Shown piece after piece: positions 11,780-64,000 of a stretch of 64,000 nucleotides of DNA. A program made the position numbers and the translations under genes. The notes below the pieces were generated by a model. That model was not told where the DNA came from. It saw nothing but the letters and a program-made list of their open reading frames with translations, and searched no databases. The number at the start of each line of letters is the position of its first letter. Within the stretch, counting starts at the first letter, position 1. This DNA is from an uncultured archaeon (GTDB lineage Archaea > Thermoplasmatota > Penumbrarchaeia > JASLWR01): NCBI GenBank assembly GCA_964430885.1, contig CAYSHM010000006.1, forward strand, positions 1 to 64,000, in the 5' to 3' direction.

Positions 11780-14700
11780 ATGGTAAAGGAAAATATTAAA
11801 AGTAAAGGTCTATCTATATCAGGTAGAGGCGGCGAAGACAAAGACAACATTAGCGTGTCCACCCGGTTCAAAAAATATTTTGGCTTTGGAGATTATGAAG
11901 GAGCGAATACTTGGTTGGCGAGGAATTGGTGGATCCTTCTAACGCTGGGGGGCATATTTCTACTAGGTTTGCTCATGAGGGCTTATTTCTATTATCCTTT
12001 GGCCAATGAGCTTGGCTTCTCAGGGAACGATCCCTATTATCACCAGCGAGTGATTGAACATATCCAGCAGCACCATACCCACCTTATAGAAGATGATCTT
12101 CTAAACTATCCTCTTTTCGCTACAAATCCGCGCCCTCCTTTCTTTGACTGGAGCGTAGCAATAATGGGAATATTCCTTGCCCCCTTTTTCGGATTCAATG
12201 TGGCTACTAGCACTGAGAGCCTGATGTATATTTCACCATCCCTCTGGGGTGCTCTCACGGTTATACCGGTTTACATGATCGGAAAAGAGATGTTTGGAAA
12301 GAAGGCCGGCCTTTTGGGTGCTTTCATCATGGCCACAATGCCCTCTCACATAGAGAGGTCGCCAGCAGGTTTCTCAGATCACGATTCTATCGTGGTTTTC
12401 TTTGTGGTATTATCCATTTTCTTCCTGTTCAGGGCTTTTAAAACCCTTGATCACCGAACTTGGGTAAAGGATTGGATGAATACCAACTCCATTTATGAAG
12501 GGATCACCGATTTCTTTTCAGCCAACCAGGTGGCAGTGTTTTATTCACTGCTTGCAGGAGTGAGTCTTTCCACAATAGCACTGACCTGGAAAGGTTTTCC
12601 CTATGCATTGGCAATAGTTTTCATCTATTTCCTGTTCCAGGTGACTTTTGACCGGTTCAGGAATGTTGATTCCACAGGAATATTTATCTGCATATTTCTG
12701 GCATTCTTCACAACACTTGTGGTATCCTATCCTTATTATATGAATCTGAGCTTCTCCACATGGATCACACCGCTTTATCTGTTATTATCCATAGTGATCA
12801 TAGGTTCCTTCCTGATATTCACTCAGAAATATCCATGGATCCTAGTGATCCCCCTGGGTGTGGTGGTGGCCATTGTTGGCTATCTCATTCTCAGTCTGAT
12901 AGCCCCCAATGTTGCCCAGGCCTTGGCAACTGGCCAGGGTTATTTCATTAAGTCAAAATTGTATTCAACGATCGCAGAGGCTCAGCCTCCCCAGTTCTCA
13001 AGACTGGCCGTGGCCTATTCGATATTCGTTTTCTTCTTTGCTCTTATTGGTATTGTGAGAGCAGCCATTCAGGTTCCGAAACACTGGAAGAAGGAGAATG
13101 TTTTCATTGTTGTTTGGGCAATTGTTGCCGTATACATGGCCATGTCTGCGGTCCGTTTCATGTTCAATGCAACACCGGTCATAGCTATCACTGCCGGATG
13201 GATATTGTATGAACTGGTGAAGAAGCTCAACGTCAAGAGCAAAATATTGATATTCTACATAATGGTCACTTTGGGATCATTGATAATCCTGGCATGGTGG
13301 GGAGTTGAGAACGACTTCTCATTGGGTTATCCCTGGATGATCTTCATAGGATTCTTAGCCCTTGTGGTGGTTCCGATTCTGATCGCAGTATACGATAATT
13401 ATGATAAATCAAAGACCAGTACCTATATTGTGGTGATACTGGGCGTATGGACATTGGCCAGCCTGGTAATGTTCATGATGGATGATAAGCTCAGCTGGAG
13501 CAATATCGGAGATGTCCTGGTGGACAATCTCAGTATTTGGTATTTCGGTCTGGCAGCCCTTTTGATTACTTTGGTCCCCATCATAATTCTGTTCTCAAAG
13601 AAGAGTTATGCCATCACTCATTTTCTCTCCATTGGATCAATAACCTTAATCCTCATGGGGCTGCGTAATTACGGTTTCTTTCAGGATTTCGTAGCGTCCA
13701 AGACATCTGAGATGCTGTTCGGTTTCTGCATACTTCCTTTGCTTGTTCTCGTTTTCAATCTCTATTTCCTTTATATGGATGAGAACTATATGAAGGACAG
13801 TGCCAGGAAGGTATTGATCATAGCTATGGAACTGTGGTTCCTGTCATTCTTCTTCAATCCGAATATCTATTTCGGAATAGTTTGCGCCATATTGATACTG
13901 GTCAACATCTATCTGTTGACCCCTTACAGAAAATCCTTCAAGCACAAGACAACACCCATGCATGTGCTGATAACTCTGTTTGCCACATTCTTCATACTTC
14001 TACCTCAGATGTGGTTTGCTATTGATGCTTCCCTGCCCTATGAGGATAAATGGGATATGAACCAGAACATGTATGATGCCATACCGGATATCATTGAGAG
14101 CGATAAAGCAGATGCAAATAAATATTTTGGAGCCTTCGGTCACGGTTTCACATCGGAATATTGGAGGGCGGCCTTCGATTGGCTAAGCGAGCAGGATAAT
14201 GACAAGATACCTTCGGAACGTCCGGCTTTTGTCAGCTGGTGGGATTACGGTTTCTGGTGTGCCTATATGGGTCAGCATCCCACTGCTGCGGATAACTTCC
14301 AGTACGGTTATCAGTTTGCGGGAAGTTTTATTTCATCCCAGAATGAGACTGAGGCAGTCAGTTTGATGATAGCCCGTCTCATCGAAGGTAATTACCTGAA
14401 TAATAAGCTTAAAAATGACATTAAGGACCTTTTTACTGATGATAAATATCTGGGCAGTGAGGAAAAGTACATCAGCATCATCTCCGGAAAGAAGCTGAAC
14501 GCAGCCGAAAAGGTCTGGGAGATAATGAACCACGGTGAGGATTATGTTGATATTATCAAGGATAATCCTGACCGATACGGAAAATATCTGGAACTTCTGC
14601 CGACCAATGCAAAATATGCAGCGGTCCGTGGAGTTCTCATGAATGTGGACCTTGAGACTCAGGTATCTCTTCTGAAGGACCTTGAGGATATGGTAAATAA

Positions 14701-17700
14701 AAATATCAGATATTTTGCTGTGGATTCAAGATTGTTCCCCTTTACAGCTCAGAATACCGGTATCTTCTATGCACCCATCAAATTGGCTGACAAGGATATA
14801 GATGAATTTCTTGAATATGTCGTGGAAACAACAGAAGGTGAGATGTCCATGGAAGAAGTTGAGGATAGGGTGGAGGAAGACCCGGATTTCCGTGAACAGA
14901 TCATAGATTACAAGCTAAAATATACGGACAACTTCTACAATTCGCTGTTTTACAGATGTTATATCGGTTACAGCGGAAAGGATCTAGGGAAGGGTGATCT
15001 GGGCGTACCTGCAATAGCACCTGAAGGGGAATTTGCTTCAGGTGGAAGCAGTTTCTATCCCATGCAGGGTTGGAACATGACCCATTTCAGATTGGTTTAC
15101 AAGACTATGTACTATACACCCAAATCGAGCAACAATGCTTCCTTCCCCGAGGATTATACTGCAATGAACTTTGATGAAGCTCAGGAACTTTATGAGGACC
15201 AGGGTGGTTATAGGATTTCCGGTTTGAAGAGCGGAGCATTTTTCCTGGAATACTATCCAGGGGCTGAAATGAGGGGTAGGGTATTGACAGAAGGTGATGA
15301 GCGGCAGCCTATGCCCGGAGTTAGAGTGGTGGTCTATGATGAGTATGGGATCCCCCATGACATGTCAATTACAGATGATGATGGTAATTATGAACTGATA
15401 TTACCTCCCGGAGAGAATACCATTGTGACCTCTACAGGAGGTTTTGGTGAGGAGGATACCGAACTTCAGGCCAGACTGATGATGCAGGAGACAACTGTTC
15501 TGAATCAGACCATCCTGACCGTTACCAAGGACCAATCTAACAGGATAACCGACCATATTATCAATAGGGACCTTATCATCAAGAAGGGTACCGTTGACGG
15601 AAAATTGTTCATCGATAACAATAACAACGGGGAGTACGACCGTCTTCAGGATGAAATCCTTAACGAAGGGATGGTTAAGATAGTCCAGGGCAAGAACAAA
15701 GATATTTTCTACGAGGAAGAGGTGGAGGATGAACTATACAATTTTACCACTGTCCTTCCAGGTGAATATGCTTTTACCGTGGGACTATACGGCCATGATG
15801 TTGAGATAGATGATAAACTCGCGGTGACCCCCAAGGCCAATGAAGAATTAAATATCTACACCAAGGACATAGGTATTGCACCAGCGAACCTATCGGGGCA
15901 GCTTACATTCAACAATGGCAGTAATGCCACTGAAATAATGGTGGTTCTTAAAGACACCCAGAACGGAACTGTTTATCAGTATGTGACCAATTCAACAGGT
16001 CATTATTATTTCGATGAGCTGCTGCCGGGTGATTTCGAACTGACAATCGAACAGTCACCATATGAAAAGGTGGACCGCACCGTGAAAATTGCCATGGGCG
16101 AGAAGAATTACCAGAACATCACACTTGTCCAGGTGGCCCCTGTTTCAGGCAGGGTATTTTTTGACAGTCTGGGCAACGGTTATGATATTGATGATTCAAT
16201 CGGCAACGCCCGGATTCGGTTCATACCTGATGACAGTGAAAAGAACATAACAATTGCTGTTAGCGGTTCGGATGGAAGATATGTCACCAACCTTTCATTG
16301 GGCCACTATACTATATATGTGGATTATGTGAATGGCGGACAGCATTATACATATCTCGGTGATATTGAGTGTATTGAGGGTGTGGAGAAGTTATGGGATA
16401 TTGAACTCTCACTTTCTTTCAGGGTTGAAGGTGAAGTTTCCTTTGGAAGTGATATTTGGCCCAAGGATAACTTCGACATCAACAACACAGAGGTTTCCAT
16501 CAGAAAAGAGTTTCTAACCATGAAACTTCCAGTTAATCTCTCAGGATATTATTCGACCTATTTACCTGTGGATGATTACTATATAACAGCATATCTGATT
16601 GAAGACGAATATACTGCAGGAATTGCAGGATCCTATATTGTTGGAGATGTAGATCAGGAAAGAACCCTTGATCTGGAGTGCGAAAAGGCCTTCAGTACCT
16701 CCGGTTGTATTTACTGGGATCGGGACGGCGACGGGAAGCTTACAATGGGCAACTCGTCCTTGGACGTTCAGGGTATCGTATTGGATATGGAGAACAACTA
16801 TCCTTACTTCGAGGATCCTTTAGCAGGCAGTGTGACAACTGATCCAAGCGGGACAACCACCACGGAAACTGTTCCAACCCAAACAACAGGAACCAGAGCC
16901 GACACCCGTCAGGAAGAGGATGGATCTCCTGAAGTGGACATATTTGAAAATCCCATAAATGGAACTGAGAATGAAACCCATGATTACGACCTCTATGAAA
17001 ATGTGACCGATGTCGTACTTGAATTTACCAAGGGAAACATGGTGTATCGAATAGTGACCAACGATACGGGTTTCTTCACAACATATCTGCCTAAGGGCGT
17101 ATATACCGTTGAAGTAAATTCTGTAGAATTGGATAATCTAAAAGCCACAATCAAGATAGGCGAGGATGAAGTGAACACTTTCACTCCTGAGATTTCCCCG
17201 AAAGAGACCGAATGCAGGATTAATATGGGAGTGGATAGGAACAATGATGATATTATTTCCCCTAATGAGCTTGTAGGCCGATATACCCTTTGGTTTAACG
17301 CGACCACTCCAGGAGCCCACAGCAAGCGTGTGGATTATATTGGTGGGGACACTACTATAGCATTATTGCCTGGGGTTTATGATATATCATACTCAAAGGA
17401 TTTCACGGACAATGGCATCGATGTAAGACACAGATTGGAAACAAATCTCTCTTTAAAAGTGGGGGAACTGGAAAAGATAGTGGACCTTTTTGTTCAGGAA
17501 ACTGTAAGGTTCAGGGGTAAGTCAGTGACTGAATTCGGCGAACCGGCGGATAATTCCACATTGAGTCTGGAATCCATTCTGGAAGGTAATGTACTTGAAG
17601 TTGTGTGCAACGAATTCGGTTATTTTGATATGTTTGTCCCCATTGGTAATTATTTCATCAATTCTAAATATACCACCGATTCTGGAGTTTACATACTGCG

Positions 17701-20023
17701 TAGATCTTTAGCTATCACATCCCTTGAAAAGGCCCCTACACTGATTTTCACAAAGGCCTATCCTTTGAACGTAACACTGTATTTTGATAAGAACGATGAT
17801 GGGAAATATCAGAGCACTGAGAAGCTCATGGACATACCCTTGACAATAACCGGAGATATAACCACTACCCATCATACAAATTACCAGGGTTTGGTATCAA
17901 CATCCCTGCTGCCTGATAAGGAATACTATATAAGCGTTCATCATACTTCGGCGGACTCAACTTACCGCCATATTGCCGAAACTACCATCATCAAAGAAAA
18001 ACAGGCCCAGGATATAAGAATTTCAGTGAGCAAGTATATCCAAGCTTCAGGCAAGGTTTATTGGGACCGGGACCTGAACAAGGTTTTCTCAACTGATGAA
18101 AAGATCATCGATGGAACCATTGAATTCATCAAGTCGGATTCCACCACGGCTGGGGAATATACCTTCCTTACTGGAAATGATGGCAAATGGTCGGGATATC
18201 TGCCGATCTTTCATAATAATACCCAGGAATTTGATGTGGTAATATCGGCACCGGGTTTTAAAGATGAACACGTGGAAAAAATGATCAAACCTTCTTCCAA
18301 AACCCTTGATGTGAGGATGGATCCCTTACCTGTTCTTTATACTGGCATGATTTTTGAGGACCTCAATAACAGCAACACTAAGGAAATCACTGAAGATATT
18401 CTTGCAGAGGTCGAACTTTCATTCATATCGATCTCAAAGACCGCCCTGAACGTTTCGGTCACCACCGATTCAAAGGGCCGATACAGCGTGCTAGTGTTCC
18501 CTGGCGAATATATGGTCAAATCCCTTGTAAAGGGCAGTCAGGTGTTCATCAGCGAGTTTAATGAAGAGGTAGTTCTTCTAGAGGATAAAAAGTTGGACAT
18601 CCCCCTGAAATTGGGCAAATATGTATTTGGAAGTGTTTCGTACATAGACACGAATGGCAATGAGCACAAAGATATTGATTCCCGGGAAAACGGTATTATT
18701 ATCAAGGGTCAGGATAACAATGTTGAGCGGGATCTGGAATTCAGCGATGGATTCTATGATACTTATCTTCCATATGGTTCATACTCTATTGAGATGAAAG
18801 GATATGATGCCGAGGAATATGAAAAGACCATGACCTATGAATTACCTAGGGATACCATCGTAATCAATGATTTCTATGATTTCTACAATCTGGATCTCGT
18901 CAAGGACGAGAAGAAGACCCTGGAATTGACCATCGTGGATCAAGTTGAAGAAATTACCTTCAATAGAACAATTAACCAAGGTGCCTCTGTTGAACTTGAA
19001 GTTATTGTAAAGAACAAGGGAAACATTCCCATGAACATAACTCTATCCGGAAATGAACTTCCGGAAGGATGGTCATTGGATATTGTGGACCGAAAGGCCG
19101 ATCTATGGTTGGATGAAGAGATGAGAACAAAGGTCACGGTCACTACATCTTTCGACGCCCTCAATACCAATGAGATAGAGATAGGAGCCGAATCAACTGC
19201 TGGATCAAAGGATGATGTTACACTGAAGATCAATACTCATCCTAAATACGAGGCCGAAGTATATACCGAAGATAAACTCGATAGGGGTTTCCTACAGAAC
19301 GGATCAAAGAATTTCAATATGACAATTAAGAATCTCGGAAATGCGGGGGATGATTTACTCTTTTATCTGGAAAAGAAAACCTCCGACCTCTGGAACATCT
19401 CTATCCAGAATGAAGAGCTGAATTCAACAGGTTATGCCTTTCACTATTCTCAAAAGGACATTTACAAGAATGTTACCATCAAGGTTGAAGCACCCAATTC
19501 TACATCAGACAACTGCAGATTTGTTATTGGTGTAAAGGGCAGGGGAGTTAACCAGAGATTATCTATCAACGGTACAATAACCAAACCTGACATTTCTATA
19601 AAGAATGTTGAGTTCAAGAATTTGGATCTTTTAGACAAGGATAGGAATGTCACTATGTATGTGACCCTTCATGCTTCTCAGGCAGATGTCGGAAAATTCA
19701 ACTTCACAGTTAAACTTGATGGTGAGAAGATCACTGAACTGTCTGAAACCATAGATAGCATTGAACAGGATGCTGATTACACAATGGTATTCGATTGGAA
19801 TCTTTCGGATGAAGTGGGAAAACACAAACTTGAGCTTGAAGTTGATCCAGAGGATCAGATAATGGAATCTGATGATACTGTGAACAATATCTGGGTGGAT
19901 GACGGATTCAAGGTTGGCACTGATGACGATGATTTCAATTGGAGAATAGTTATCGCTGTTGTGGTGGTATTGATCATAGTAATAGTGTCCTATGTGATTT
20001 GGAGGAAGAAACAGGTAGTATAA
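11780..20023 (+). CDS. aglB: Giant oligosaccharyltransferase AglB (STT3 family) fused to carboxypeptidase-regulatory/SdrD-B-like, Ig-like and CARDB domains, with a C-terminal TM
   Basis: GNDPYYH, FSDHD, STIAEAQ, SWWDYG and ADNFQ STT3 motifs; ~1600 aa of repeated G.VY.D.D.DG beta-sandwich modules; LEVDPEDQIMESD…NN CARDB motif. Confidence 0.9.
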   Translation: MVKENIKSKGLSISGRGGEDKDNISVSTRFKKYFGFGDYEGANTWLARNWWILLTLGGIFLLGLLMRAYFYYPLANELGFSGNDPYYHQRVIEHIQQHHTHLIEDDLLNYPLFATNPRPPFFDWSVAIMGIFLAPFFGFNVATSTESLMYISPSLWGALTVIPVYMIGKEMFGKKAGLLGAFIMATMPSHIERSPAGFSDHDSIVVFFVVLSIFFLFRAFKTLDHRTWVKDWMNTNSIYEGITDFFSANQVAVFYSLLAGVSLSTIALTWKGFPYALAIVFIYFLFQVTFDRFRNVDSTGIFICIFLAFFTTLVVSYPYYMNLSFSTWITPLYLLLSIVIIGSFLIFTQKYPWILVIPLGVVVAIVGYLILSLIAPNVAQALATGQGYFIKSKLYSTIAEAQPPQFSRLAVAYSIFVFFFALIGIVRAAIQVPKHWKKENVFIVVWAIVAVYMAMSAVRFMFNATPVIAITAGWILYELVKKLNVKSKILIFYIMVTLGSLIILAWWGVENDFSLGYPWMIFIGFLALVVVPILIAVYDNYDKSKTSTYIVVILGVWTLASLVMFMMDDKLSWSNIGDVLVDNLSIWYFGLAALLITLVPIIILFSKKSYAITHFLSIGSITLILMGLRNYGFFQDFVASKTSEMLFGFCILPLLVLVFNLYFLYMDENYMKDSARKVLIIAMELWFLSFFFNPNIYFGIVCAILILVNIYLLTPYRKSFKHKTTPMHVLITLFATFFILLPQMWFAIDASLPYEDKWDMNQNMYDAIPDIIESDKADANKYFGAFGHGFTSEYWRAAFDWLSEQDNDKIPSERPAFVSWWDYGFWCAYMGQHPTAADNFQYGYQFAGSFISSQNETEAVSLMIARLIEGNYLNNKLKNDIKDLFTDDKYLGSEEKYISIISGKKLNAAEKVWEIMNHGEDYVDIIKDNPDRYGKYLELLPTNAKYAAVRGVLMNVDLETQVSLLKDLEDMVNKNIRYFAVDSRLFPFTAQNTGIFYAPIKLADKDIDEFLEYVVETTEGEMSMEEVEDRVEEDPDFREQIIDYKLKYTDNFYNSLFYRCYIGYSGKDLGKGDLGVPAIAPEGEFASGGSSFYPMQGWNMTHFRLVYKTMYYTPKSSNNASFPEDYTAMNFDEAQELYEDQGGYRISGLKSGAFFLEYYPGAEMRGRVLTEGDERQPMPGVRVVVYDEYGIPHDMSITDDDGNYELILPPGENTIVTSTGGFGEEDTELQARLMMQETTVLNQTILTVTKDQSNRITDHIINRDLIIKKGTVDGKLFIDNNNNGEYDRLQDEILNEGMVKIVQGKNKDIFYEEEVEDELYNFTTVLPGEYAFTVGLYGHDVEIDDKLAVTPKANEELNIYTKDIGIAPANLSGQLTFNNGSNATEIMVVLKDTQNGTVYQYVTNSTGHYYFDELLPGDFELTIEQSPYEKVDRTVKIAMGEKNYQNITLVQVAPVSGRVFFDSLGNGYDIDDSIGNARIRFIPDDSEKNITIAVSGSDGRYVTNLSLGHYTIYVDYVNGGQHYTYLGDIECIEGVEKLWDIELSLSFRVEGEVSFGSDIWPKDNFDINNTEVSIRKEFLTMKLPVNLSGYYSTYLPVDDYYITAYLIEDEYTAGIAGSYIVGDVDQERTLDLECEKAFSTSGCIYWDRDGDGKLTMGNSSLDVQGIVLDMENNYPYFEDPLAGSVTTDPSGTTTTETVPTQTTGTRADTRQEEDGSPEVDIFENPINGTENETHDYDLYENVTDVVLEFTKGNMVYRIVTNDTGFFTTYLPKGVYTVEVNSVELDNLKATIKIGEDEVNTFTPEISPKETECRINMGVDRNNDDIISPNELVGRYTLWFNATTPGAHSKRVDYIGGDTTIALLPGVYDISYSKDFTDNGIDVRHRLETNLSLKVGELEKIVDLFVQETVRFRGKSVTEFGEPADNSTLSLESILEGNVLEVVCNEFGYFDMFVPIGNYFINSKYTTDSGVYILRRSLAITSLEKAPTLIFTKAYPLNVTLYFDKNDDGKYQSTEKLMDIPLTITGDITTTHHTNYQGLVSTSLLPDKEYYISVHHTSADSTYRHIAETTIIKEKQAQDIRISVSKYIQASGKVYWDRDLNKVFSTDEKIIDGTIEFIKSDSTTAGEYTFLTGNDGKWSGYLPIFHNNTQEFDVVISAPGFKDEHVEKMIKPSSKTLDVRMDPLPVLYTGMIFEDLNNSNTKEITEDILAEVELSFISISKTALNVSVTTDSKGRYSVLVFPGEYMVKSLVKGSQVFISEFNEEVVLLEDKKLDIPLKLGKYVFGSVSYIDTNGNEHKDIDSRENGIIIKGQDNNVERDLEFSDGFYDTYLPYGSYSIEMKGYDAEEYEKTMTYELPRDTIVINDFYDFYNLDLVKDEKKTLELTIVDQVEEITFNRTINQGASVELEVIVKNKGNIPMNITLSGNELPEGWSLDIVDRKADLWLDEEMRTKVTVTTSFDALNTNEIEIGAESTAGSKDDVTLKINTHPKYEAEVYTEDKLDRGFLQNGSKNFNMTIKNLGNAGDDLLFYLEKKTSDLWNISIQNEELNSTGYAFHYSQKDIYKNVTIKVEAPNSTSDNCRFVIGVKGRGVNQRLSINGTITKPDISIKNVEFKNLDLLDKDRNVTMYVTLHASQADVGKFNFTVKLDGEKITELSETIDSIEQDADYTMVFDWNLSDEVGKHKLELEVDPEDQIMESDDTVNNIWVDDGFKVGTDDDDFNWRIVIAVVVVLIIVIVSYVIWRKKQVV

Positions 20024-21000: not shown

Positions 21001-22428
21001 ATGACATTGATACTACCTGGAGTAGAGATAGAAGTAGTAAAGGAAATAGTTGTCGGACAACTGAATCCCGCTGGAATTTTCGGCCTTGTGGGAATTACCG
21101 AGGAAAATGAGGACGGAACTCCAAAAGCTGTGGATAGAGAAGGGTCTTACAAAGGATTAAAGGGACTTTTCGGAAAGAGTATCGAATTCACCATTCCTGA
21201 AGCTAAACAGGCTTATCAGAACGGTGTTTCAGAGATTGTTGTATCACCGATACATAGTGCCTCAGCCAAGGCGGCGATCCTTGCATTAAACGATGCAAAG
21301 GGAAACAAGGTAGCTACCCTGACCGCCAGGGCCAGGGGAGTCTGGGGGAACGGTATCAACGTGAAGATCAGTTCCAAGATGGACGGAGAGGGAAAAAAGA
21401 CCCTTTTCACCATGACCCTTGCATATAAAGGAGCAGTGGAATTTTATGACAATCTATCCATGGTCGAGACCAATGATAGATATTTCGTAAATATAGTAAA
21501 TCAGCTCTCCGATCTTATCCGTATGGAAGCAGGAAAAGCCGCAGGCGGTAAAAAGGGAAAGGACGCCGCAGCAGCTCTAGAACTTCCGGCAGATTTTGAA
21601 GGCAGTCTTTCTGGAGCTACAGATCCCACCGCAAAGGACTACGAAGATGCCCTTTCCAAGCTGGAGAGCGAGGAGGATGTGGACCTTGTAGCAGCATCCG
21701 TCCATACATGGAAGGACCGAGGGTTGGCCAAAAGTGTTTATGCCGCTATTGAGGCACACTGCAATGTTATGAGCCAGAACTGTTTCAACAGGATTGGTTT
21801 CGGTGAAGCTCCGCCTCCTGAAGAATTTGCAGACCAGAAGGACGAGGTCGATTTTATCACCAAGCAGACCAATGTCCTCAACAGCGACAGGTTTGTTTAT
21901 GTAGCCCCCCACGGCGCACTAGGTGCTGTTGTCGGTCTAATAGGCAATCTGAACTACTACCAATCACCCACCTTCAAGACCCTGAGCGGGCTGACTGGTT
22001 TGGAGAGCAAATATTCTCCTACCAACCTCAAGAAACTCCTGGTGGCCAAGATACTTGCGCTTGAGATAAAGAAGGGCAGAGGGATCATTATTGAGAAAGG
22101 CATCGCTACTTCAGGCGAACAGATCTCAGTTCAGAGAGTAGCCGACAGATCAGTAAGAGGTACAAAGATGATCGGCGACCTCTTCATAGGGACTCTCAAC
22201 AACATGTCCGGCAGGGCAGCTTTAAAGGAGAAGATCACCGAGTTCTTCCTGCAGATGGAGAAGGACGGCGGTATTGTTCCAAATGCTGACGGATCCGACC
22301 CGGCCTACAAGGTCGATGTATATGCCACCGACGATGATATCTCAAAAGGTATCGTCAGAGTGGATGTGGCTGTCAGACCGGTAAGAGCCATTGACTATAT
22401 CTACGGAACAATCCTTGTCAGGGCATAG
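21001..22428 (+). CDS. Contractile tail sheath protein (phage sheath/eCIS type)
   Basis: N-terminal LPGVEIEV, TARARGVWGNGINVKI, E.YDNLSM…RYF..IVN, and C-terminal ISVQRVAD…FIGTLN…VDVAVRPVRAIDYIY; GGAGG SD at 20989-20993. Confidence 0.88.
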   Translation: MTLILPGVEIEVVKEIVVGQLNPAGIFGLVGITEENEDGTPKAVDREGSYKGLKGLFGKSIEFTIPEAKQAYQNGVSEIVVSPIHSASAKAAILALNDAKGNKVATLTARARGVWGNGINVKISSKMDGEGKKTLFTMTLAYKGAVEFYDNLSMVETNDRYFVNIVNQLSDLIRMEAGKAAGGKKGKDAAAALELPADFEGSLSGATDPTAKDYEDALSKLESEEDVDLVAASVHTWKDRGLAKSVYAAIEAHCNVMSQNCFNRIGFGEAPPPEEFADQKDEVDFITKQTNVLNSDRFVYVAPHGALGAVVGLIGNLNYYQSPTFKTLSGLTGLESKYSPTNLKKLLVAKILALEIKKGRGIIIEKGIATSGEQISVQRVADRSVRGTKMIGDLFIGTLNNMSGRAALKEKITEFFLQMEKDGGIVPNADGSDPAYKVDVYATDDDISKGIVRVDVAVRPVRAIDYIYGTILVRA

Positions 22429-49705: not shown

Positions 49706-51052
49706 TTGAAAAGCGAGATAAAGAGAGCCCTGTTTTGGGACATTGGAATTCCAGGCCCTCCGTTGGAGATAGAGATTCATCCGACTGAGAAGAGTAATTT
49801 AGAGATAAATCCCTGTAAATGTTTAAAGGAAACTCTGGTAAATCCGAAGACCTTAGGTCAGAGCCAGCTTGAGAAGATAGTACATCAAGGCTGTGAACTA
49901 GGTGTAAAAAAATGGATTTTCAAGGGTGATGGTGAACCATTGCTTATCAAGGACCGGCTGATTAGTTTAATGCAGTATATCAAGGACCATATGGCCCATG
50001 GAACACTCCAGACAAACGGAACAATGTTCACCCCGTCCAATGTGACTGATATCGTCACAATGGCCTGGGACCGGATAGAGATATGTATGCCAAGCTCAGC
50101 GGAGGATAATTATTTTCAAATCGTCCAAACAGAGAAGGCTTATGAACATATCATCAATGGCATAGATATGATAACTGACATCAAGGATGAATTGGGAACT
50201 GACAAACCGGTCATTGATATATTTCTTCCAATAACTCCGAAGACCTATGATAACATTGGAGATATGCTGAAATGGGCTAAGACCAAGGATATCAATAGGG
50301 TAAGGGCCGAGCCCCCATCAGCACTATCCAGCGCGGAACTGGAACTGATCAAACTTGATACCAATGAACTAAATCTATTGAAGAACCACATACCCAGCTA
50401 TCATTCTCTGGCAAGATCACTGAATATAAAGTTCGATATAATACCCATCAATGAGGAGTTCACGCCCAAATTAGGGAAAAAAAGAAAGAAGGACGAACGG
50501 AATAAATCCAAAGATTCCGACCTCTCATTTCCATCCAATGAACTTGATTCAGAAACCCTATTTTGTTTAGAACCATATCTAAAAATGGTTTTCAGACCGA
50601 GATTGGGAATAGGCCCTTGTCCAATTTCCAGATATGAACAGGATAACAAGAACTACCTGTCAGCGAATGAGTTGGCCGAGAATGATCTTGATGATTTATG
50701 GAAAGCCCCTCTTTTCACGTATTTAAGAGAGAATGCTAAGACCGGTTTTGTTGATTTCTATTGTAATAATTGCCCCAAGCGTTTAAGAACCAGGCAGATG
50801 AAATCTATTAAATCTTTGAAGCTCAGCCGAGATCGTTTCCTGAGAAATACAATAGATGTGATGATCAGGAACAAATCTGAGAATGACCCTCGGATCAAGG
50901 AGAGATTGGACCGTATACGTAAATTGACAAAGGATATTAACCTAAGACAGGGTGAATTGGTCGAAATGAGAAGATATCATTTGGAACTAGAAAAAATACG
51001 CTCTCGCTTCCCCTATAGGGTTTTGAGAAAATTACGTGTGATAAAGGAATGA
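49706..51052 (+). CDS. Radical SAM/SPASM-like protein with a degenerate CxxxCxxC motif and C-terminal coiled coil
   Basis: GDGEPLL, QTNGT, and FCLEP…GPCP…LW…CNNC SPASM-like cysteines; the cluster motif position reads TEKSNLEINPCKC. Confidence 0.7.
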   Translation: MKSEIKRALFWDIGIPGPPLEIEIHPTEKSNLEINPCKCLKETLVNPKTLGQSQLEKIVHQGCELGVKKWIFKGDGEPLLIKDRLISLMQYIKDHMAHGTLQTNGTMFTPSNVTDIVTMAWDRIEICMPSSAEDNYFQIVQTEKAYEHIINGIDMITDIKDELGTDKPVIDIFLPITPKTYDNIGDMLKWAKTKDINRVRAEPPSALSSAELELIKLDTNELNLLKNHIPSYHSLARSLNIKFDIIPINEEFTPKLGKKRKKDERNKSKDSDLSFPSNELDSETLFCLEPYLKMVFRPRLGIGPCPISRYEQDNKNYLSANELAENDLDDLWKAPLFTYLRENAKTGFVDFYCNNCPKRLRTRQMKSIKSLKLSRDRFLRNTIDVMIRNKSENDPRIKERLDRIRKLTKDINLRQGELVEMRRYHLELEKIRSRFPYRVLRKLRVIKE

Positions 51053-51066: not shown

Positions 51067-54000
51067 TCAGCTTTCTAACTGAGCGAGCAGATTCTCGATC
51101 TTCTTAGATGTTGATTGTTTTGGTCCTGGGGCCGGTGGAGTGTTTACAGCCGATGTAGATGGCTGAACCGGGGCGGTTTTGGGGGGTTGAGTTGTAGGGA
51201 TGGTAGTCGTGGGTTGTGTAACAGGTAATGTTCTAGCCGGTGTTGTTACCGGGACCGTCTTTGGTGGTTGGGTTACAGGTGCAGTAGTCGCAGGCCGTGT
51301 CACAGGTACTGTTTTAGCCGGTGTTGTTACCGGGACCGTCTTTGGTGGCTGAGTTGCAGCAACCGGTTGGGTTACAGGTGCAGTAGTCGCAGGCCGTGTC
51401 ACAGGCACAGTTTTGGCCGGTATTGTTGTTACCGGGATAGTATTTGGCGGTTCTGTAGTTGTAACCGGTATTGTCTTTGGAGCATCCATTCCTTCCTGCT
51501 GGCTGGTTTCGGTCTGCTCAGGCAGAAGCTTCATTTCCGTACCTGGCTGTTGATCAGTTGATAATGGCAGTGATACTGTGGGTGTATCCTGAACTCCGTA
51601 GGCAGTCTCTCCTTGGTATTGAGCATCCTGTTCGTAATCCTGACCATAATACTCCTGAGACTGATCATAATACTCCTGAGACTGATCATATTGCTCATAT
51701 TGACCGTATTGGTCGTATTGCATCTGCTGCTGGCCTGCAGGAGCCATCGCTCCGGGATATCCGTACTGATCCTGCTGACCGTACTGCATATAGGACTGTC
51801 CCATTGGCTGCTGCTGAGGATATTGCTGCAGTGCTGCCCCTGCCTCCTGTTCAGGCATATCTTCATCAAGGAGATCGTCAAAATCAAGGTCGTCTATCAG
51901 GGTTGTACCTTCCTTAAGATCGTAATCGTCCGTTGCATCATACTTGAGTTCCCTAACACTGTATTTGCTTCTAATGATCGCCAATGCAAGAAGGATTATT
52001 ATAAAGCCGGCCATCACAATAAGCGATGCGTAAAGCCAGTCTTCAGGAGTGACGCTATCGTGATCATCGTGATCATCGTCATCATCTCCATTATCGTCAT
52101 CAATTTCAAGGACGCGTATCTTAGCGGTTCCTATATTATTTCTGGTATTGTTATCATCGATTCCAGTCAGCTCAACTGTAAGATTGAAAAGGCCTTTCTC
52201 GTTGAAGGTATATTCAAAGTTCTTGATCTCATAGACATTCCGCTCCAGATAGGTAATGTTCGTTTTGAATACCGGATTGTTCCTTCCCTCGACGTAAACT
52301 GCAATATCCAGTACATTGCCGAACTTGTTTGAATCAAAATATTGGTTGCCTTGATTGACCACTCCGAACTTGAAATTGATCCTCTCTTTTTCCTTCACCT
52401 TGTATCCGTCTGTCTTGGTGATCTCGTTTATGTAAATATCAGTACAACCGAACTCGAATTCAACTACCCGGATTATTACCTTGGTGGTTTTAACAGTGTC
52501 CGCTCCAAGTGTGATCCTTCCCAATATCTCAAAGGTGTATGCTTTAAGTTCCACATTCTTGGGCGGGCTGAAAGTAAGAGAGAAACTCTTTGTTTCCTTA
52601 TAGGACAGGTAAAGATTTTTCTGCGCTAATAACCCCCAGTCCTCACCATGTATCAGGAACGAAAGGGTCACATCCGAGTTCCCAGTGTTCTGGATCTCGA
52701 GATCTATTACGGTTGCCCCTCCCGGTATGGCATCATAGGTTACATTTGTAGTGAGGAATTGAAAATCCAGAGTTTCCAGAACTTCTACAATGAATAAATG
52801 CTGGAAAGTAATGTTCTCGTCCCCTTCTGAAGCCAGAACAAGCGTGAACTCATAATCCTTAGCTGAGGCGCCGTAGGGAATCTTGATATTGAACCCGAAT
52901 GTTCCGTTGAGTCCGAAGTCGACCTTGAATCTCTTCTCACCGATGTATATCCAATCCGGATACATTGATTCAATTGCAAAGATATAGGTATCCATTATAT
53001 TACCGATATTTGTAATTCGTGATTCGAATGATATATTGTCCCCTATATGCCCTTTCTTTTCAGTGATATTATAGAATATCTCAGCCTTGAAAACCGATAC
53101 AACATCAACTGTAAGCGCCACGCTGTCCTCATATACAAGAGGATCATCTGAAAGTACATTTACAATAAAGGTGTATTTCCCCACTGGCGTACTGGGAGGC
53201 ACCTTTATCCTCAACTCGATATCAGCGTCTAGGCCCTTTGGAAGACCCCCTTCTCTAATGTTTGTAGTATCGAACCACCATTCCCATCCCGCTGGATCTG
53301 AGGGATACTTGGCTACAACAAAGGTTCCTTCACTACCAATAATATCATCTAGACTGTTACCTACATTTTCAATGGTGAATACGAATGTTGTATAGTCCAG
53401 GGGTTGGCCTTCCTCGGGTTCGGGGGTCCCTTTGATTTCTATATCATAGATCTTTCTCACAGAAGTCTCCACCCAGGAATTCCATTTAGGTTCTTCCCTT
53501 TTAACAATAGGTTTTGCCCACAATGATGTGATCTGGGTCTGTCCGGCATCCGCCTCCATAGGTACAAACAATATTACGGATATGATTATTGTATCGCCCA
53601 TCTCAATGTTCAAGATCTCCTGGGTGTCATCTACCAGCTGAACAAGCCATTCATAGTCGGAGGATTCCGGCCATACATCATAGATGTCGTCACCGTTGCC
53701 GAGATTGGTTACCTGGAAATCGTAGATGAGCTGCTGGCCAGGGTCTACCTGCTGTTTTTCAGGCGTGGATATGTCGAGCATGTGGTCCAATCCAACCTCC
53801 ACTACAAATGGGATCATAGATATATTAGCCGGTGCCAATTTAGATTTCAAGGTGATGTCGATAGAATAATTGCCCACAGTGGCATTGTAGATGTCGCCTA
53901 CTATGATCTTTACTGTAAGACTTTTTACCCTTTCTGATTCAGGAGAGGGGCTGTTAAAGGGCGGTATTCTGTCGAATTTATCAGGATAAAGGATAATCTG

Positions 54001-54327
54001 CCAACCTGCAGGCGTATTGGTTTCCACAACGTAATCATCGACCATGTTTCCCATGTTTCTCACAGTGCAGTTCAGGACCACCAGGTCCCTTGGGAAAGCT
54101 TTCTTTGAGATGTTCTCATCAGTTTCAAGGAGAGGTGTGAACTTAGCAGCCCGCTTCTGGGATAAAGAATCCGTTTGGGGACTGTTCTCAGTTCCTAGAA
54201 TACCTACATTATTCCTATAGGAAAACATAGTTGCATCCAGACTGTTGAAAAGTATGATGAAGACAATTAGAATAGCCAATGATAATAGGTTTCGTTTATT
54301 TTGAGATCCCTTCTTCAAACATATCAC
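51067..54327 (-). CDS. Large single-pass surface protein: tandem Ig-like (COG1470/NPCBM-associated-like) and CARDB domains, TM, low-complexity tail
   Basis: Signal-like N-terminus; repeated (V/I).N.GN..D module starts; one TM near aa 765-787; acidic, Q/Y-rich and P/T-rich tail. Confidence 0.8.
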   Translation of the reverse strand: MICLKKGSQNKRNLLSLAILIVFIILFNSLDATMFSYRNNVGILGTENSPQTDSLSQKRAAKFTPLLETDENISKKAFPRDLVVLNCTVRNMGNMVDDYVVETNTPAGWQIILYPDKFDRIPPFNSPSPESERVKSLTVKIIVGDIYNATVGNYSIDITLKSKLAPANISMIPFVVEVGLDHMLDISTPEKQQVDPGQQLIYDFQVTNLGNGDDIYDVWPESSDYEWLVQLVDDTQEILNIEMGDTIIISVILFVPMEADAGQTQITSLWAKPIVKREEPKWNSWVETSVRKIYDIEIKGTPEPEEGQPLDYTTFVFTIENVGNSLDDIIGSEGTFVVAKYPSDPAGWEWWFDTTNIREGGLPKGLDADIELRIKVPPSTPVGKYTFIVNVLSDDPLVYEDSVALTVDVVSVFKAEIFYNITEKKGHIGDNISFESRITNIGNIMDTYIFAIESMYPDWIYIGEKRFKVDFGLNGTFGFNIKIPYGASAKDYEFTLVLASEGDENITFQHLFIVEVLETLDFQFLTTNVTYDAIPGGATVIDLEIQNTGNSDVTLSFLIHGEDWGLLAQKNLYLSYKETKSFSLTFSPPKNVELKAYTFEILGRITLGADTVKTTKVIIRVVEFEFGCTDIYINEITKTDGYKVKEKERINFKFGVVNQGNQYFDSNKFGNVLDIAVYVEGRNNPVFKTNITYLERNVYEIKNFEYTFNEKGLFNLTVELTGIDDNNTRNNIGTAKIRVLEIDDDNGDDDDDHDDHDSVTPEDWLYASLIVMAGFIIILLALAIIRSKYSVRELKYDATDDYDLKEGTTLIDDLDFDDLLDEDMPEQEAGAALQQYPQQQPMGQSYMQYGQQDQYGYPGAMAPAGQQQMQYDQYGQYEQYDQSQEYYDQSQEYYGQDYEQDAQYQGETAYGVQDTPTVSLPLSTDQQPGTEMKLLPEQTETSQQEGMDAPKTIPVTTTEPPNTIPVTTIPAKTVPVTRPATTAPVTQPVAATQPPKTVPVTTPAKTVPVTRPATTAPVTQPPKTVPVTTPARTLPVTQPTTTIPTTQPPKTAPVQPSTSAVNTPPAPGPKQSTSKKIENLLAQLES
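51235..51440 (-). repeat. Intragenic tandem repeats encoding P/T/V-rich units (KTVPVTTPA / RPATTAPVTQP)
   Basis: Near-identical DNA blocks such as GCCGGTGTTGTTACCGGGACCGTCTTTGGTGG and GGTTGGGTTACAGGTGCAGTAGTCGCAGGCCGTGTCACAGG each occur twice. Confidence 0.85.
51645..51690 (-). repeat. 21-bp perfect tandem duplication (YDQSQEY x2)
   Basis: CATAATACTCCTGAGACTGAT twice in tandem. Confidence 0.85.
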
Positions 54328-60735: not shown

Positions 60736-63700
60736 TCATCGGGAATATGGTTTTTCCTGCCCACCTATCTTAATTGTTCTTCCATCTGAACTGCCATGAC
60801 CTGACATTTTGTCCGATCCGAAATCGTACCTGTTCGCATCAGGGTCGCCCTGTTTGTTGGATTTCAAAACCTCAACCCGTCTTCTAGCACTGTTTGGATT
60901 GGAACTGCTGACCTTGTTCCTGGCAGCAATATCCCTATGGACCACGCCTTCTTGATGAAGCGGGGGAACAGGGTCGAGTTCTGGTGCAGGCCCTGCTGAA
61001 GCAGTTGTATTGGACCTTGACGAATTATAATCCTGTGCTTTAGTGCCTCCTGAGCCTCCGGAACCACTTCCTCCTGGTTCCTGCATAAGCTGCGGAGAGC
61101 TCATATCAATTGGTTTAGATATTTTTGGTGGTTTTTCTGGGTCCATCCTGGCCGAGGTAGTGTTTGACCGTGACGAATTGTAGTCTTGGGCTCTTGATGC
61201 ACTACCTGCTGATGAGCCAGCTGCGGCTGCCTGCCCATATTTCACCCTGCCGGGTCTTTTTCTTAGTAGTGGATCTTCACCTGTATCCGCCTGTGGCTGA
61301 ATCCTATTTGTCCGTGTTGTGTTATGATTAGCAGGCGATGCGGTATCGATATCACTCCCTCCGTTCTTTTTTAGCGTTCCGCCAGGCCTTTTTCTTACAA
61401 CTTTATCATTACCATTGCGGAGTATATCATCGCCGCTTTCCACCCCGCTTGTTGTATTTGACCTTGAAGAGTTGTAATCCTGTGCTCTGCTTTGATATTG
61501 ATCATATCCCTTTTTCCCGGAAAATCCTCCTGAAGCCGGTCCCGCAGCAGAGGCAGGTTCATACATAGGATTCTCCCCCTGATTACCGTTCCCCTGATAC
61601 AGGGGGTTGTTGCTAGAACGTCCCGATCCTTTGGTTAGAATACAGCCCAAACCTCCTAATATAAGACCCGATACCAGACCGAGGAGTACCCATGGAAGGA
61701 TACTCTCCTTCTCATCAGTTTTGTTCTTAGATAATAGGGTGTTAGGGACTTCATTTACATCTGAAGGATCAGTTCGATTTTCGTATTCCTCCATGTTTGA
61801 GAATCCATCACCGTCATCATCTGCCTGCGAGTCGTCGACCTTGGGATCTGTGCCGTGTTCACTCTCCCATCCGTCGGGGAGACCATCTCCGTCTGTGTCC
61901 GAATCGTTCACATCCGTGCCCAACCGTATTTCCTCAACGTTTGTAAGGCCGTCCCCGTCTTTATCGTACATGGCATCGAATGGGTCCAATGGGTCCAACC
62001 CATAAGATAATTCGTCGGAATCCAGTATGCTGTCCCCGTCGTCATCATCATCCAGAGCATCGGAGATTCCATCCCGGTCGGTATCCATATAGGCATCAGG
62101 GTCCAGTGGGAATGCGTCAGTGCTATCATCTATCCCGTCCCCGTCATCATCATCATCCAAAGCATCAGCTATACCATCCTTATCGGTATCGGAAGGAAAT
62201 GAAGTGTTATCCTCTGGATCGGATCCCAACAGCTCTTCTATGGCATCTGGCCAACCATCCCGATCCTTGTCCAGGCGACCCTCCCCAGAACTGTTCATAT
62301 TGTATTCATTTTCAGTCAGGTTTCCCGCGGGTAATACGACCGTAATAACTGCTGAATCGGTCCCCGTTAATCCCTGTTGGTCCATGACTTTGAGTTTGAT
62401 CCGATAATTTCCCGGCTCTTCAGGGTGAAATGTGAACCATTTTTCATATATCTCAGCTGATGTACCGTTGAATTCAATGGTCCAGGTATAATTGTCTATC
62501 CCAATATTATCCATGCTGGAATTGCCGGAAATTGTATTTCGGTCCCCCAGAACTATCATTTCCTCGGTCTCAATTACTGCATTTGGAGCATGAATATCGA
62601 ATAATGGTCTGGTATAGATGGGAGAAAGATTGAAATTGCCGGAGATGTCGCTTGAATTGAATATATAACTCAGGTTGCTGGAAAGGTTGTTAATCATAAG
62701 AAAATTGTTCCAATGATCGAGCTGACCACCTTCCATTGTGAGGTTCATCTTTTGTCCCTGTCCATACCAGTATTGCATGGTTACCATTTCCACTTCAATA
62801 TTATCATAGGAGGATGCTGTGAAGAGAACGTTTTCTCCTGCAATAATCTTCGGTTCACCTGCTTCCATTACCTCAGGCGGTATCCTGTCCAGAACCGCCA
62901 TTTCTCTTGCGGGTGTATTCATTGTATTGCCCGCCATGTCCTCGGCGAGTATGGTATGCGTGATATTACCCATGATATCGTCAGGGATCGTTAGATTGTA
63001 GCTCCAGTACCCTCCACCCTGATGTTCCATTGTGTGTTTGTGCGTAATACTATCTTCATACATAGTTATCTCAAGGATGACTTCTTTCAGCCCGATATCA
63101 TCAAAGACCTGGGCGCTGAATTCCCAGTACTTCCCGGAAAATGCTGGGCCTTGCATTGTTTTGTCAACTATCACCGGTGATTTAATGTCTCTGGGAATAA
63201 CCCTGGGAAAACTATCCTGGACCGGTTTCATTCTATCAGGGATATCTATTTCATAAGGCGTGTTCCAGATGTATGAATCATAAGTAGCGTTGGGATATCT
63301 TTCTGACATATCTGACCAATAATTTCCTATTCCGCCGTTGTCCCATTTGTTATTGTACCCCGCGTCCTTAGCCTGAACGCCACCGTTGTTGTTATCGGCA
63401 AAATTGTTGCTGTAAATTGATATGGATGTCGTTTCGAACCTCAGATGTAGGCCGTAAATCTGATTCCCCAATAGAGAGTTGTTCCTGATCAGAATGTTGT
63501 AGGAGGCCAATATTGAAAAACCATACTTGCCGCCAGTAGCAGTGTTGTTGTCTATGATGACGTTCCCGGTATTGTTGAGAAACAGTCCCGCTCCTTGGCT
63601 GTCGATCATATAATTGTCCTTTATCATCACATTCTGAACATTGAACAGGGATATACCTCCGTTTTCAAAATACTTGTTTGTTCCTCCATTAACGCTTTTG

Positions 63701-64000
63701 ATGGAGTTGCCCTGTATTATGATATAATCAGTAGTATTTCCAATATAAATGCCGTGTCCGTAACCTACACCGTGAATATCCCAGCCGCTGATGATGTATG
63801 GATCATCCTTGGTTCCGTTCCCGCCGTTTGTTCCATTTTCGGGTGTTAGATCCTTTCCGCTGTTAATAATTATAGGTTCCCGGACATTGTCTCTGGGGTC
63901 GCCCTTATCCATGACTCTTTCATTTTCATCTATCTCGTCCGTACCTGATACCCATGTAAATATAAAAGGAACCATGAATATCGTGATTATCAAAGCAATT
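60736..64000 (-). CDS. Single-pass surface protein (5' end beyond the window): NosD/beta-helix, Ig-like, PKD and Ca-binding DxDxDG repeats, TM, ~300-aa motif-mosaic tail
   Basis: The frame stays open to the window edge; G.GTKDDPYII and parallel beta-helix repeats, GNYWSD, SMDNIGIDNYTW…PGNY PKD, TM ILPWVLLGLVSGLILGGLGCIL. Confidence 0.85.
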   Translation of the reverse strand, partial: IALIITIFMVPFIFTWVSGTDEIDENERVMDKGDPRDNVREPIIINSGKDLTPENGTNGGNGTKDDPYIISGWDIHGVGYGHGIYIGNTTDYIIIQGNSIKSVNGGTNKYFENGGISLFNVQNVMIKDNYMIDSQGAGLFLNNTGNVIIDNNTATGGKYGFSILASYNILIRNNSLLGNQIYGLHLRFETTSISIYSNNFADNNNGGVQAKDAGYNNKWDNGGIGNYWSDMSERYPNATYDSYIWNTPYEIDIPDRMKPVQDSFPRVIPRDIKSPVIVDKTMQGPAFSGKYWEFSAQVFDDIGLKEVILEITMYEDSITHKHTMEHQGGGYWSYNLTIPDDIMGNITHTILAEDMAGNTMNTPAREMAVLDRIPPEVMEAGEPKIIAGENVLFTASSYDNIEVEMVTMQYWYGQGQKMNLTMEGGQLDHWNNFLMINNLSSNLSYIFNSSDISGNFNLSPIYTRPLFDIHAPNAVIETEEMIVLGDRNTISGNSSMDNIGIDNYTWTIEFNGTSAEIYEKWFTFHPEEPGNYRIKLKVMDQQGLTGTDSAVITVVLPAGNLTENEYNMNSSGEGRLDKDRDGWPDAIEELLGSDPEDNTSFPSDTDKDGIADALDDDDDGDGIDDSTDAFPLDPDAYMDTDRDGISDALDDDDDGDSILDSDELSYGLDPLDPFDAMYDKDGDGLTNVEEIRLGTDVNDSDTDGDGLPDGWESEHGTDPKVDDSQADDDGDGFSNMEEYENRTDPSDVNEVPNTLLSKNKTDEKESILPWVLLGLVSGLILGGLGCILTKGSGRSSNNPLYQGNGNQGENPMYEPASAAGPASGGFSGKKGYDQYQSRAQDYNSSRSNTTSGVESGDDILRNGNDKVVRKRPGGTLKKNGGSDIDTASPANHNTTRTNRIQPQADTGEDPLLRKRPGRVKYGQAAAAGSSAGSASRAQDYNSSRSNTTSARMDPEKPPKISKPIDMSSPQLMQEPGGSGSGGSGGTKAQDYNSSRSNTTASAGPAPELDPVPPLHQEGVVHRDIAARNKVSSSNPNSARRRVEVLKSNKQGDPDANRYDFGSDKMSGHGSSDGRTIKIGGQEKPYSR
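61003..61485 (-). repeat. Three dispersed copies of the peptide AQDYNSSRSNTT
   Basis: Copies at 61450-61485, 61156-61191 and 61003-61038; identical amino acids, different codons. Confidence 0.95.
61750..62275 (-). repeat. Thrombospondin type-3-like Ca-binding repeats
   Basis: DKDRDG, DTDKDG, DDDGDG, DTDRDG, DKDGDG, DTDGDG, DDDGDG units with E…G.DP spacers. Confidence 0.85.

Follow-up and report, generated by a model that had tools for sequence, protein, structure and literature searches.

How does a peptide of the protein kinase catalytic loop come to stand in the tail of an archaeal surface protein that has no kinase domain? The question is raised by a stretch of 64,000 nucleotides from an uncultured archaeon of the Thermoplasmatota (contig CAYSHM010000006.1; the whole stretch is called the window here), the right end of which encodes a membrane-anchored surface protein, P0002, on the minus strand. 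Near its C-terminus this protein carries the 15-residue word LHQEGVVHRDIAARN (the HRD word), equivalent to the end of helix E and the catalytic loop of protein kinases. The answer proposed here is that the word was derived from a kinase core, is unable to catalyse, and may act as one binding site within a multivalent array of displayed peptides, a role that we regard as about evenly balanced between true and false.

The HRD word and its protein

The features of the gene on which the argument depends are the following.

60736..64000, minus strand: gene for the 1107-amino acid (aa) membrane-anchored surface protein P0002 (from the list of open reading frames, contig extension, Pfam and database identity)
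61633..61701, minus strand: predicted C-terminal membrane helix (ILPWVLL...CILT; coordinates from the translation)
60739..61632, minus strand: 298-aa low-complexity tail carrying all the peptide words (from composition)
60916..60960, minus strand: kinase-core word LHQEGVVHRDIAARN, helix E end and catalytic loop (from translation, PF07714 and orthologue alignment)

The open reading frame (ORF) continues beyond the window, its start codon lying about 60 bases past the window end in the extension provided by contig C6, and P0002 is the database protein identical to the product of the window gene, with a full length of 1107 aa. From the N-terminus it is composed of a hydrophobic anchor or signal, a Beta_helix/NosD part, an Ig/PKD-like part, TSP3 repeats, the membrane helix and the 298-aa tail; Pfam assigns the ectodomain to the right-handed beta-helix (Beta_helix/NosD), PKD and bacterial TSP3 repeat families. 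In the tail, G, S, P, N, Q, T and A make up 60% of the residues and V, I, L, M, F, W and C only 11%, and it is because of this composition that the tail is taken as disordered, in agreement with the reading made earlier from the sequence only. The tail probably faces the cytoplasm, since domains of extracellular type precede the helix and basic residues follow it, both in P0002 and in its orthologues. Within the tail hmmscan finds no Pfam family at E<=10, there are no matches at E<=10 among the sequences of solved structures, and a protein-atlas look-up gave no usable match.

Minus-strand translation of 60916-60960 gives exactly LHQEGVVHRDIAARN, residues 1014-1028 of the part of the ORF within the window. 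The word includes HRDIAARN, and so has the HRD....N pattern of a catalytic loop. When the whole genome was searched with the PF07714 profile, this fragment was the only part of P0002 matched, as had been predicted, at model positions 118-133 and with 10 bits and an E value of 0.5 against a cut-off of 23.1 bits. Neither Pfam nor inspection of the sequence reveals a Gly-rich loop, a beta-3 Lys, a DFG or an APE element around the loop; W[MT]APE is also absent from P0002, and the flanks are linkers rich in G, S, P and A. Since every other kinase element is missing from P0002, the word cannot be catalytic, a conclusion that had already been drawn from the sequence and to which the profile search gives no exception. 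What is present is a module, LH.EG[VI][VI]HRD[ILV]A[AS]R, inside a protein without a kinase domain.

The pattern HRD[LIV]AARN, back-translated, matches once in the window and in none of 100 shuffles of it. In a six-frame translation of the 3.13-Mb genome HRD[LIVM]AA[RK]N occurs a single time, in P0002, and the other words of the tail are likewise confined to this one gene. Capture of the fragment from the kinases of the same genome was considered and rejected, because both real kinases (contigs C3 and C4; about 120 bits) carry HRDIKPEN and not AARN.

Orthologues and proteins with similar tails

For comparison, 119 proteins (82,151 residues in total) were fetched by their likeness to the P0002 tail. 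Orthologue P0003 (1105 aa) is colinear with P0002 from the N-terminus to the last residues, with 32% identity and an E value of 3e-124, and the HRD words of the two proteins are aligned with each other (...LHKENVIHRDIAARD). P0003 has two copies of the word and P0005 one, and the YNSSRSN and RKRPGR motifs, whose co-occurrence with the fragment had been proposed as a check, are present in the orthologues as well. An assembly chimera was rejected as the origin of the gene: independent assemblies (P0003, P0005, P0009 and the G025 orthologue) share the ectodomain, the membrane helix and the tail architecture. In the orthologous gene on G025:C5 (L006 / L012) a run of N breaks the repeat-rich tail. 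Metagenome-assembled genomes (MAGs) probably recover tails of this kind incompletely, and absences of a word are therefore to be read with care.

HRD[LIVM]A[AS]R is found in 19 copies in 18 of the 119 proteins; its co-occurrence there with AQDYNSSRSN is partly by construction, the set having been chosen by tail likeness. The longer form LH.EG[VI][VI]HRD[ILV]A[AS]R is also present in P0003, P0005, P0057, P0067, P0075, P0100, P0107, P0114 and others, so that the orthologues P0003 and P0005, as well as other prokaryotic non-kinase proteins, carry the fragment, the opposite of what would have refuted the sequence-only reading. In 11 of the 19 copies the HRD.AAR-type core is followed by N. The tyrosine-kinase signature seen in the sequence-only reading is correct for P0002, with its HRDIAARN, but the copies in the archaeal orthologues (P0003, P0005) have D, D and E in place of the final N. 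The upstream part, to which the same specificity had been ascribed, does not have it: LH..G[VI][VI]HRD fits protein kinases generally, and P0049 matches Pkinase. A block formed by an Hcp-like word, AQDYNSSRSN and the HRD word is colinear in the P0002 tail and in the bacterial secreted protein P0075 (44.3 bits, E 2e-10). The invariance of the HRD word, rather than formal rates, suggests that it has been conserved while its flanks diverged.

Origin from protein kinases

The relationship of the word to kinases is clearest in small PEP-CTERM proteins, of which 12 from Phycisphaerales and other Planctomycetota were aligned. PF07714 matches every one of them (best E 7.8e-20; model positions 121-177 in the first member), seven match Pkinase and five match PEP-CTERM. 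In the alignment G, HRD and AARN (G-..-HRD-.-AARN) and a downstream W are invariant, and the kinase words keep their native order: E..(H)PN..QF (subdomains III/IV), the HRD..AARN loop, DFGMSR in one case, and P[IV]RWMAPES. Between these words, in the place of the kinase core, there is a pair of NPxY motifs. Three Bacteroidota-type proteins of the fetched set, P0049, P0028 and P0012, exceed the PF07714 cut-off with 39.0, 31.3 and 30.1 bits versus 23.1; their best stretch is the HRD word in P0049 and the WMAPES word in P0028 and P0012, and P0049 matches in addition Pkinase (PF00069) with 21 bits. In the proteins of Bacteroidota type the HRD and WMAPES words are separated by more than 700 residues.

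Because the PEP-CTERM relic is colinear with a kinase and PF07714 matches every member, these alignments demonstrate, at the level at which sequences can, that the HRD word descends from a protein kinase core. Comparison with the relic family and with the Bacteroidota-type proteins would place the P0002 word at the most reduced end of a series beginning with a clear kinase relic. The early proposal of a captured or mimetic peptide was right in kind, as the other carriers also reuse a kinase-derived peptide in non-kinase proteins; the role suggested with it (decoy, pseudosubstrate or tag) would be one among several candidate explanations. In the protein-atlas look-up every match listed for relic L118 was a cluster of eukaryotic kinase fragments (best score 0.84, to be taken as a lead only). 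Around 13 Phycisphaerales and other Planctomycetota loci the relic family itself is found in 10 neighbourhoods and one other family in 3.

Range of carriers

Since the fetched proteins had been selected through the tail, an independent scan was run with a degenerate DNA pattern for G[VI][VI]HRD[LIV]AAR over one genome each of 185,579 species. It gave 114 stretches, of which 51 were word-like by a context rule. The 63 set aside include spurious high-GC frames, apparent true kinases (L088, L115) and contigs resembling eukaryotic exons. Partner words, counted within the part of the ORF available at each locus (up to 609 aa), were NP[LMI][YH] in 25 of the 114 stretches, the Hcp-loop word SG..[ST]G[KR]R in 11, W[MT]APE in 9 and N.[ST]RSN in 7. 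The HRD word was seen in Planctomycetota, Bacteroidota, Verrucomicrobiota, Acidobacteriota and a second archaeal family.

The carriers are of very different kinds. They comprise the small PEP-CTERM proteins of Phycisphaerales and other Planctomycetota, small secreted proteins of Terriglobia, and large proteins of Chitinophagaceae and Sphingobacteriales, among them P0018 (MBI5372827.1), the sole annotation of which is carboxypeptidase regulatory-like domain protein. An RHS-repeat protein of Pedosphaera (L018; RHS_repeat 83.1 bits) has the HRD word together with an SRSN word, and a giant UBP7 protein (L060) contains a Phage_base_V piece. In a Dehalococcoidia MAG the carrier (L094, 115-804, minus strand) is a genuine Hcp, matching T6SS_HCP in two stretches with 77.4 bits, and the HRD word and duplicated SG..TG.R loop words are inserted in a loop of the Hcp. 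Another exported carrier (L024, 282-1679, minus strand) holds an HU/IHF domain (Bac_DNA_binding, 85.6 bits in three stretches) and, in the same ORF, a WMAPE word, an NPLY pair and the HRD word. L021 looks like L024 by eye; the two come from Hydrogenedens and Nitrospirales MAGs.

In the phylum of the window the pattern is present in two of 401 genomes, that of the window itself and G060. The G060 protein continues from a CARDB ectodomain through a membrane helix to a PLY/PIY pair and then IHRENIVHRDLAARS, which is the same grammar of words on a different archaeal ectodomain. A further archaeal surface protein (L008, 1-1764, plus strand, on G039:C1) has CARDB/PKD-like repeats and a post-helix tail that contains ...SPMHEEGGTEGENPMYEE... 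and ends in AQDYNSSRSNS. Because the L008 tail sits on a different surface protein, word-bearing tails appear to move between ectodomains.

Other words along the P0002 tail

The HRD word is one of several short words in the tail, the rest of which are listed here from the membrane helix towards the C-terminus.

61561..61608, minus strand: NPxY pair, NPLY, 8 residues and NPMY, just after the membrane helix (from motif and PF08725)
61495..61527, minus strand: GFSGKKGYDQY word (from sequence comparison)
61450..61485, minus strand: AQDYNSSRSNTT repeat, copy 1 (from sequence)
61378..61434, minus strand: degenerate tail-tube-like word (..VVRKRPGG), aligned with a P0003 segment that matches Phage_T4_gp19
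61234..61281, minus strand: tail-tube-like word GEDPLLRKRPGRVKYG; orthologous segments match Phage_T4_gp19
61156..61191, minus strand: AQDYNSSRSNTT repeat, copy 2 (from sequence)
61078..61125, minus strand: Hcp-like word KISKPIDMSSPQLMQE (from alignment to a P0075 segment)
61003..61038, minus strand: AQDYNSSRSNTT repeat, copy 3 (from sequence)
60817..60885, minus strand: word RRRVEVLKSNKQGDPDANRYDFG (LKSN..G[DY]P core; alone in P0002)

The AQDYNSSRSNTT repeats are informative on what is being conserved. Copies 1 and 2 differ in 9 of 12 codons, all the differences being synonymous and none changing a residue. Because the copies differ only synonymously it is the peptide and not the DNA that is kept, and the codon comparison demonstrates purifying selection on AQDYNSSRSNTT at the peptide level. 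A DNA-level repeat or mobile element as the source of the AQDYNSSRSN copies was rejected on the same synonymous divergence.

Most of the other words resemble signature segments of unrelated families, and the resemblance is generally stronger in relatives of P0002. The NPxY pair matches Integrin_b_cyt (PF08725) at model positions 25-44 in P0002, with 12.5 bits and an E value of 0.48 (cut-off 23.4), and scores 14.8-21.5 bits in P0007, P0010, P0025 and P0057; the pair also follows the membrane helix in other archaeal surface proteins. The GFSGKKGYDQY word stands directly after the membrane helix in the orthologues P0003, P0005, P0009 and G025, and at the end of CarboxypepD_reg-type segments in Bacteroidota-type proteins. 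The tube-like segments of P0003 match Phage_T4_gp19 (PF06841) with 35.1 bits, above the cut-off of 28.2; because the match covers only model positions 25-60 of 134, it identifies a fragment and not a tube protein. The segment of P0005 reaches 23.6 bits, and the orthologous segments also match TIGR02241. The P0075 segment aligned with KISKPIDMSSPQLMQE matches T6SS_HCP (PF05638) at positions 50-70 with 14.4 bits.

LKSN..G[DY]P is near-invariant in 45 of the 119 fetched proteins. In those of Sericytochromatia type it comes directly after a ...G.Y.FNNAP.G....I..S..GY... segment, which by eye is the end of a transthyretin-like fold, the last CarboxypepD_reg-type strands, and where PF13620 is precomputed. 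An EF-Tu switch-I piece (model positions 52-88) is present in P0008, P0016, P0020 and P0098, and a MopE-type DNDCDG piece in P0100. RRRVEVLKSNKQGDP is counted among the vocabulary together with the HRD word, WMAPES, HPN..QF, the NPxY pair and AQD[YH]N.[ST]RSN. Two more near-invariant words, ...ATSGLKDTLKTQV and ...SNVLK.RHD.A.N.I.N.., are found at the C-termini of otherwise different proteins (P0015-P0020; P0011, P0012, P0019, P0028 and P0049).

Possible role of the word and alternative explanations

In the explanation that we favour, the HRD word would be a non-catalytic peptide from the kinase core, the end of helix E and the HRD..AAR loop, that selection keeps as a module of a cassette composed of the Hcp-like word, AQDYNSSRSN and LH.EG(V/I)(V/I)HRD(I/V/L)AAR, located in a disordered tail, probably cytoplasmic, on an adhesin-like surface protein of the archaeon. 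It would belong to a vocabulary of short near-invariant peptides, each of which matches the signature motif of some unrelated family. Kinase subdomains III/IV, VIb, VII and VIII are represented in this vocabulary, as are the gp19 tail tube, Hcp, HU, EF-Tu switch I, an integrin-beta-like NPxY pair and the end of CarboxypepD_reg. Bacteria and archaea alike seem to place these words in low-complexity regions and loops of exported, anchored and injection-system proteins. Short invariant islands in floppy linkers or carrier loops, in shuffled order and in many copies, point to a displayed linear epitope that would be bound by another protein, own or foreign. A more ambitious form of this explanation, which we consider possible but would doubt rather than defend, is that the whole vocabulary is shared across domains of life as a multivalent array of baits or mimics, made from the best-conserved motifs of abundant or widespread proteins and shown on disordered tails, on PEP-CTERM proteins and in the loops of Hcp, Rhs and VgrG-type carriers, the archaeal tail being its membrane-anchored form facing the cytoplasm. 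If true, it would amount to a previously unrecognised system of molecular mimicry or decoys across domains.

Several observations weigh against the displayed-epitope explanation. No binding partner of the word is known. Its carriers, which include a cytoplasmic tail, exported PEP-CTERM proteins and Hcp, are spread over compartments so different that a single cellular partner for all of them becomes less likely. There is no conserved gene neighbour in the 13 Phycisphaerales and other Planctomycetota loci, and AlphaFold2 on the 12-sequence relic alignment gave no confident fold (mean predicted local distance difference test score 43.5, predicted template-modelling score 0.28), a result that speaks neither for folding nor for disorder. 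The word is absent from orthologue P0009, it is unreadable in the G025 orthologue where the tail is broken by the N run, its final N is lost in the archaeal orthologues as described above, and among the 400 further genomes of the phylum that were sampled only one has it. Taken alone, the matches of P0002 to PF07714 and to the integrin tail model are insignificant; the Phage_T4_gp19 model finds nothing in the P0002 tail, GEDPLLRKRPGRVKYG being too short for the model to report, and T6SS_HCP has no match in the whole genome at E<=10, the P0002 tail included.

The simplest alternative would be a chance resemblance in a low-complexity tail. A match of 10 bits invites it, and anyone familiar with thousands of motifs is bound to come across some of them by chance. 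However, the word is aligned in an orthologue, it is invariant in the kinase-relic family and it recurs across phyla with the same partner words; on these grounds, and with the empty shuffles, the likeness to the kinase loop is more than chance, and the accident is scarcely credible. This upholds the view of the sequence-only reading that a match of this length is hard to attribute to chance. Nor do we think it at all probable that the word is a functionless passenger, a relic cassette that recombination between low-complexity regions has spread and that is simply tolerated. Such a passenger would be consistent with the shuffled word order between proteins, the lack of conserved neighbours and the rarity in the phylum, but not with words that are near-invariant across phyla despite diverged flanks, or with repeat copies that differ only synonymously. 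Discontinuous domains, in which the words are core segments split by huge low-complexity insertions and fold together within or between chains, find some support among the carriers: the Hcp of L094 matches its model across the insertion, L024 matches HU in three separated stretches, and the PEP-CTERM proteins keep subdomains III/IV, VIb and VIII in native order and, as read off the alignment, at roughly native spacing. In the P0002 tail there is nevertheless a single kinase word and no other kinase element with which it could fold, and both the distance between kinase words in the Bacteroidota-type proteins and the AlphaFold2 result make the explanation improbable.

It is likewise improbable that the words mark sites of glycosylation, phosphorylation or cleavage of the tail. 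D-Y-N-S-S-R-S-N-T-T contains two N-x-S/T sequons, both maintained in the variants DHNASRSNKT and DYNGTRSNRS, basic runs (RKR, RRR) flank several words, and most words have a Tyr; the HRD word itself has neither sequon nor Tyr, and the AglB/STT3-type transferase of the window would act outside the cell, away from a tail that is probably cytoplasmic. Somewhat better placed, although still unlikely, is a decoy or pseudosubstrate role. The baits offered by the tail would be copies of the motifs that tolerate mutation least in proteins which invaders or competitors attack or use, such as kinases, EF-Tu and the tube proteins of contractile systems, and foreign enzymes or assemblies would be titrated or trapped by them on the inner side of the membrane. 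When carried by bacterial Hcp, Rhs, VgrG-like and exported proteins, the same words would act on target cells. In its favour, the carriers include a real Hcp, an RHS-repeat protein, a giant with a Phage_base_V piece and exported PEP-CTERM proteins, the words are signature motifs of conserved and mostly abundant proteins, and the host genome encodes scattered parts of contractile systems, namely the sheath of the window and, on C12, Baseplate_J together with a gp25-like gene. Against it, no trapped enzyme or invader has been identified, the position in archaea is probably cytoplasmic, and it is hard to see what the integrin-like words and those of tyrosine-kinase type could target in an archaeal cell. 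PADLOC has no match for P0002 and returns no more than fragments of kinase models (mad6, PD-T4-6), and PHROGs gives nothing for P0002, P0075 or L118. We know of no catalytic-core motifs that serve as docking sites.

Relation to known systems

The P0002 word matches the tyrosine type of catalytic loop (subdomain VIb, HRDLAARN) of the PF07714 kinases, and its relatives also carry words of subdomains III/IV, VII and VIII; P0002, however, has no kinase fold and is neither an enzyme nor a member of the family. Pseudokinases are another case of non-catalytic reuse of kinase sequence. They keep the whole fold, lose catalytic residues and are used as scaffolds, whereas here it is the residues of the catalytic loop that survive, without the fold. 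A further comparison is with the linear-motif mimicry of pathogen effectors and the integrated decoys of plant immune receptors, in which short conserved peptides, in disordered regions or grafted on carriers, act by being bound. The likeness lies in the non-catalytic display of a conserved peptide. Known mimicry copies docking motifs and not motifs buried in a catalytic core, whereas the present words are catalytic-core motifs and their carriers are free-living bacteria and archaea. The cytoplasmic tail of integrin beta (PF08725) has, as P0002 has, a membrane helix and then two NPxY motifs 8 residues apart, but P0002 scores below the cut-off and the bacterial unit is repeated up to 6 times with a period of 12 residues. 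We regard the integrin likeness as a resemblance and not as evidence of common descent.

No paper on the reused words was found in the literature searched by peptide strings or keywords, and a term search of a 2025 review of bacterial pseudokinases (PMC12599244) gives no mention of PEP-CTERM or Planctomycet-. The reuse of kinase-loop and other signature words in prokaryotic non-kinase proteins has apparently not yet been described. It is a strange phenomenon, and a widespread one. Should the words indeed function as binding epitopes, catalytic-core motifs would have gained a further use as portable linear peptides, and the disordered regions of prokaryotes would contain a layer of conserved islands that has so far gone unannotated. 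For annotation there is a practical consequence: matches to PF07714, GTP_EFTU, Phage_T4_gp19 and T6SS_HCP in word proteins are fragment matches, and because summed fragments can pass curated cut-offs, as with the 39.0 bits of P0049, automatic annotation would be misled. The PEP-CTERM kinase-relic family, being small and tractable, offers an entry for experiments.

Genomic setting and minor observations

Three contigs set aside in the scan, from Dehalococcoidia and Ekhidna MAGs (L020, L048 and L076), have short frames like a eukaryotic tyrosine-kinase exon ending after ...HRDLAARNCM, and may represent eukaryotic contamination of the MAGs.

In the genome of the window, which is 91.6% complete, no tube gene (PF06841, PF05638) was found. 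It has a lone tail-sheath homologue in the window (21001-22425, plus strand; Phage_sheath_1 48.6 bits and a C-terminal sheath domain; PHROG tail sheath E 3e-29), which has a radical-SAM gene on one side and a giant AglB fusion gene on the other, and far off, at G000:C12:63673-66845, Baseplate_J (113.9 bits) with a gp25/sheath-initiator-like gene. A link of these contractile-system parts to the tube-like words is only a thought.

Two ORFs of the window, 51070-54327 (minus strand, 1086 aa) and 49706-51049 (plus strand, 448 aa), have no Pfam family at E<=0.001. The archaeal nature of the window is evident from its genes for eIF-6, CDP-archaeol synthase and an AglB/STT3 protein; a 2752-aa ORF at 11765-20020 (plus strand) is an STT3/AglB oligosaccharyltransferase fused with CarboxypepD_reg, NOMO-like and CARDB domains.

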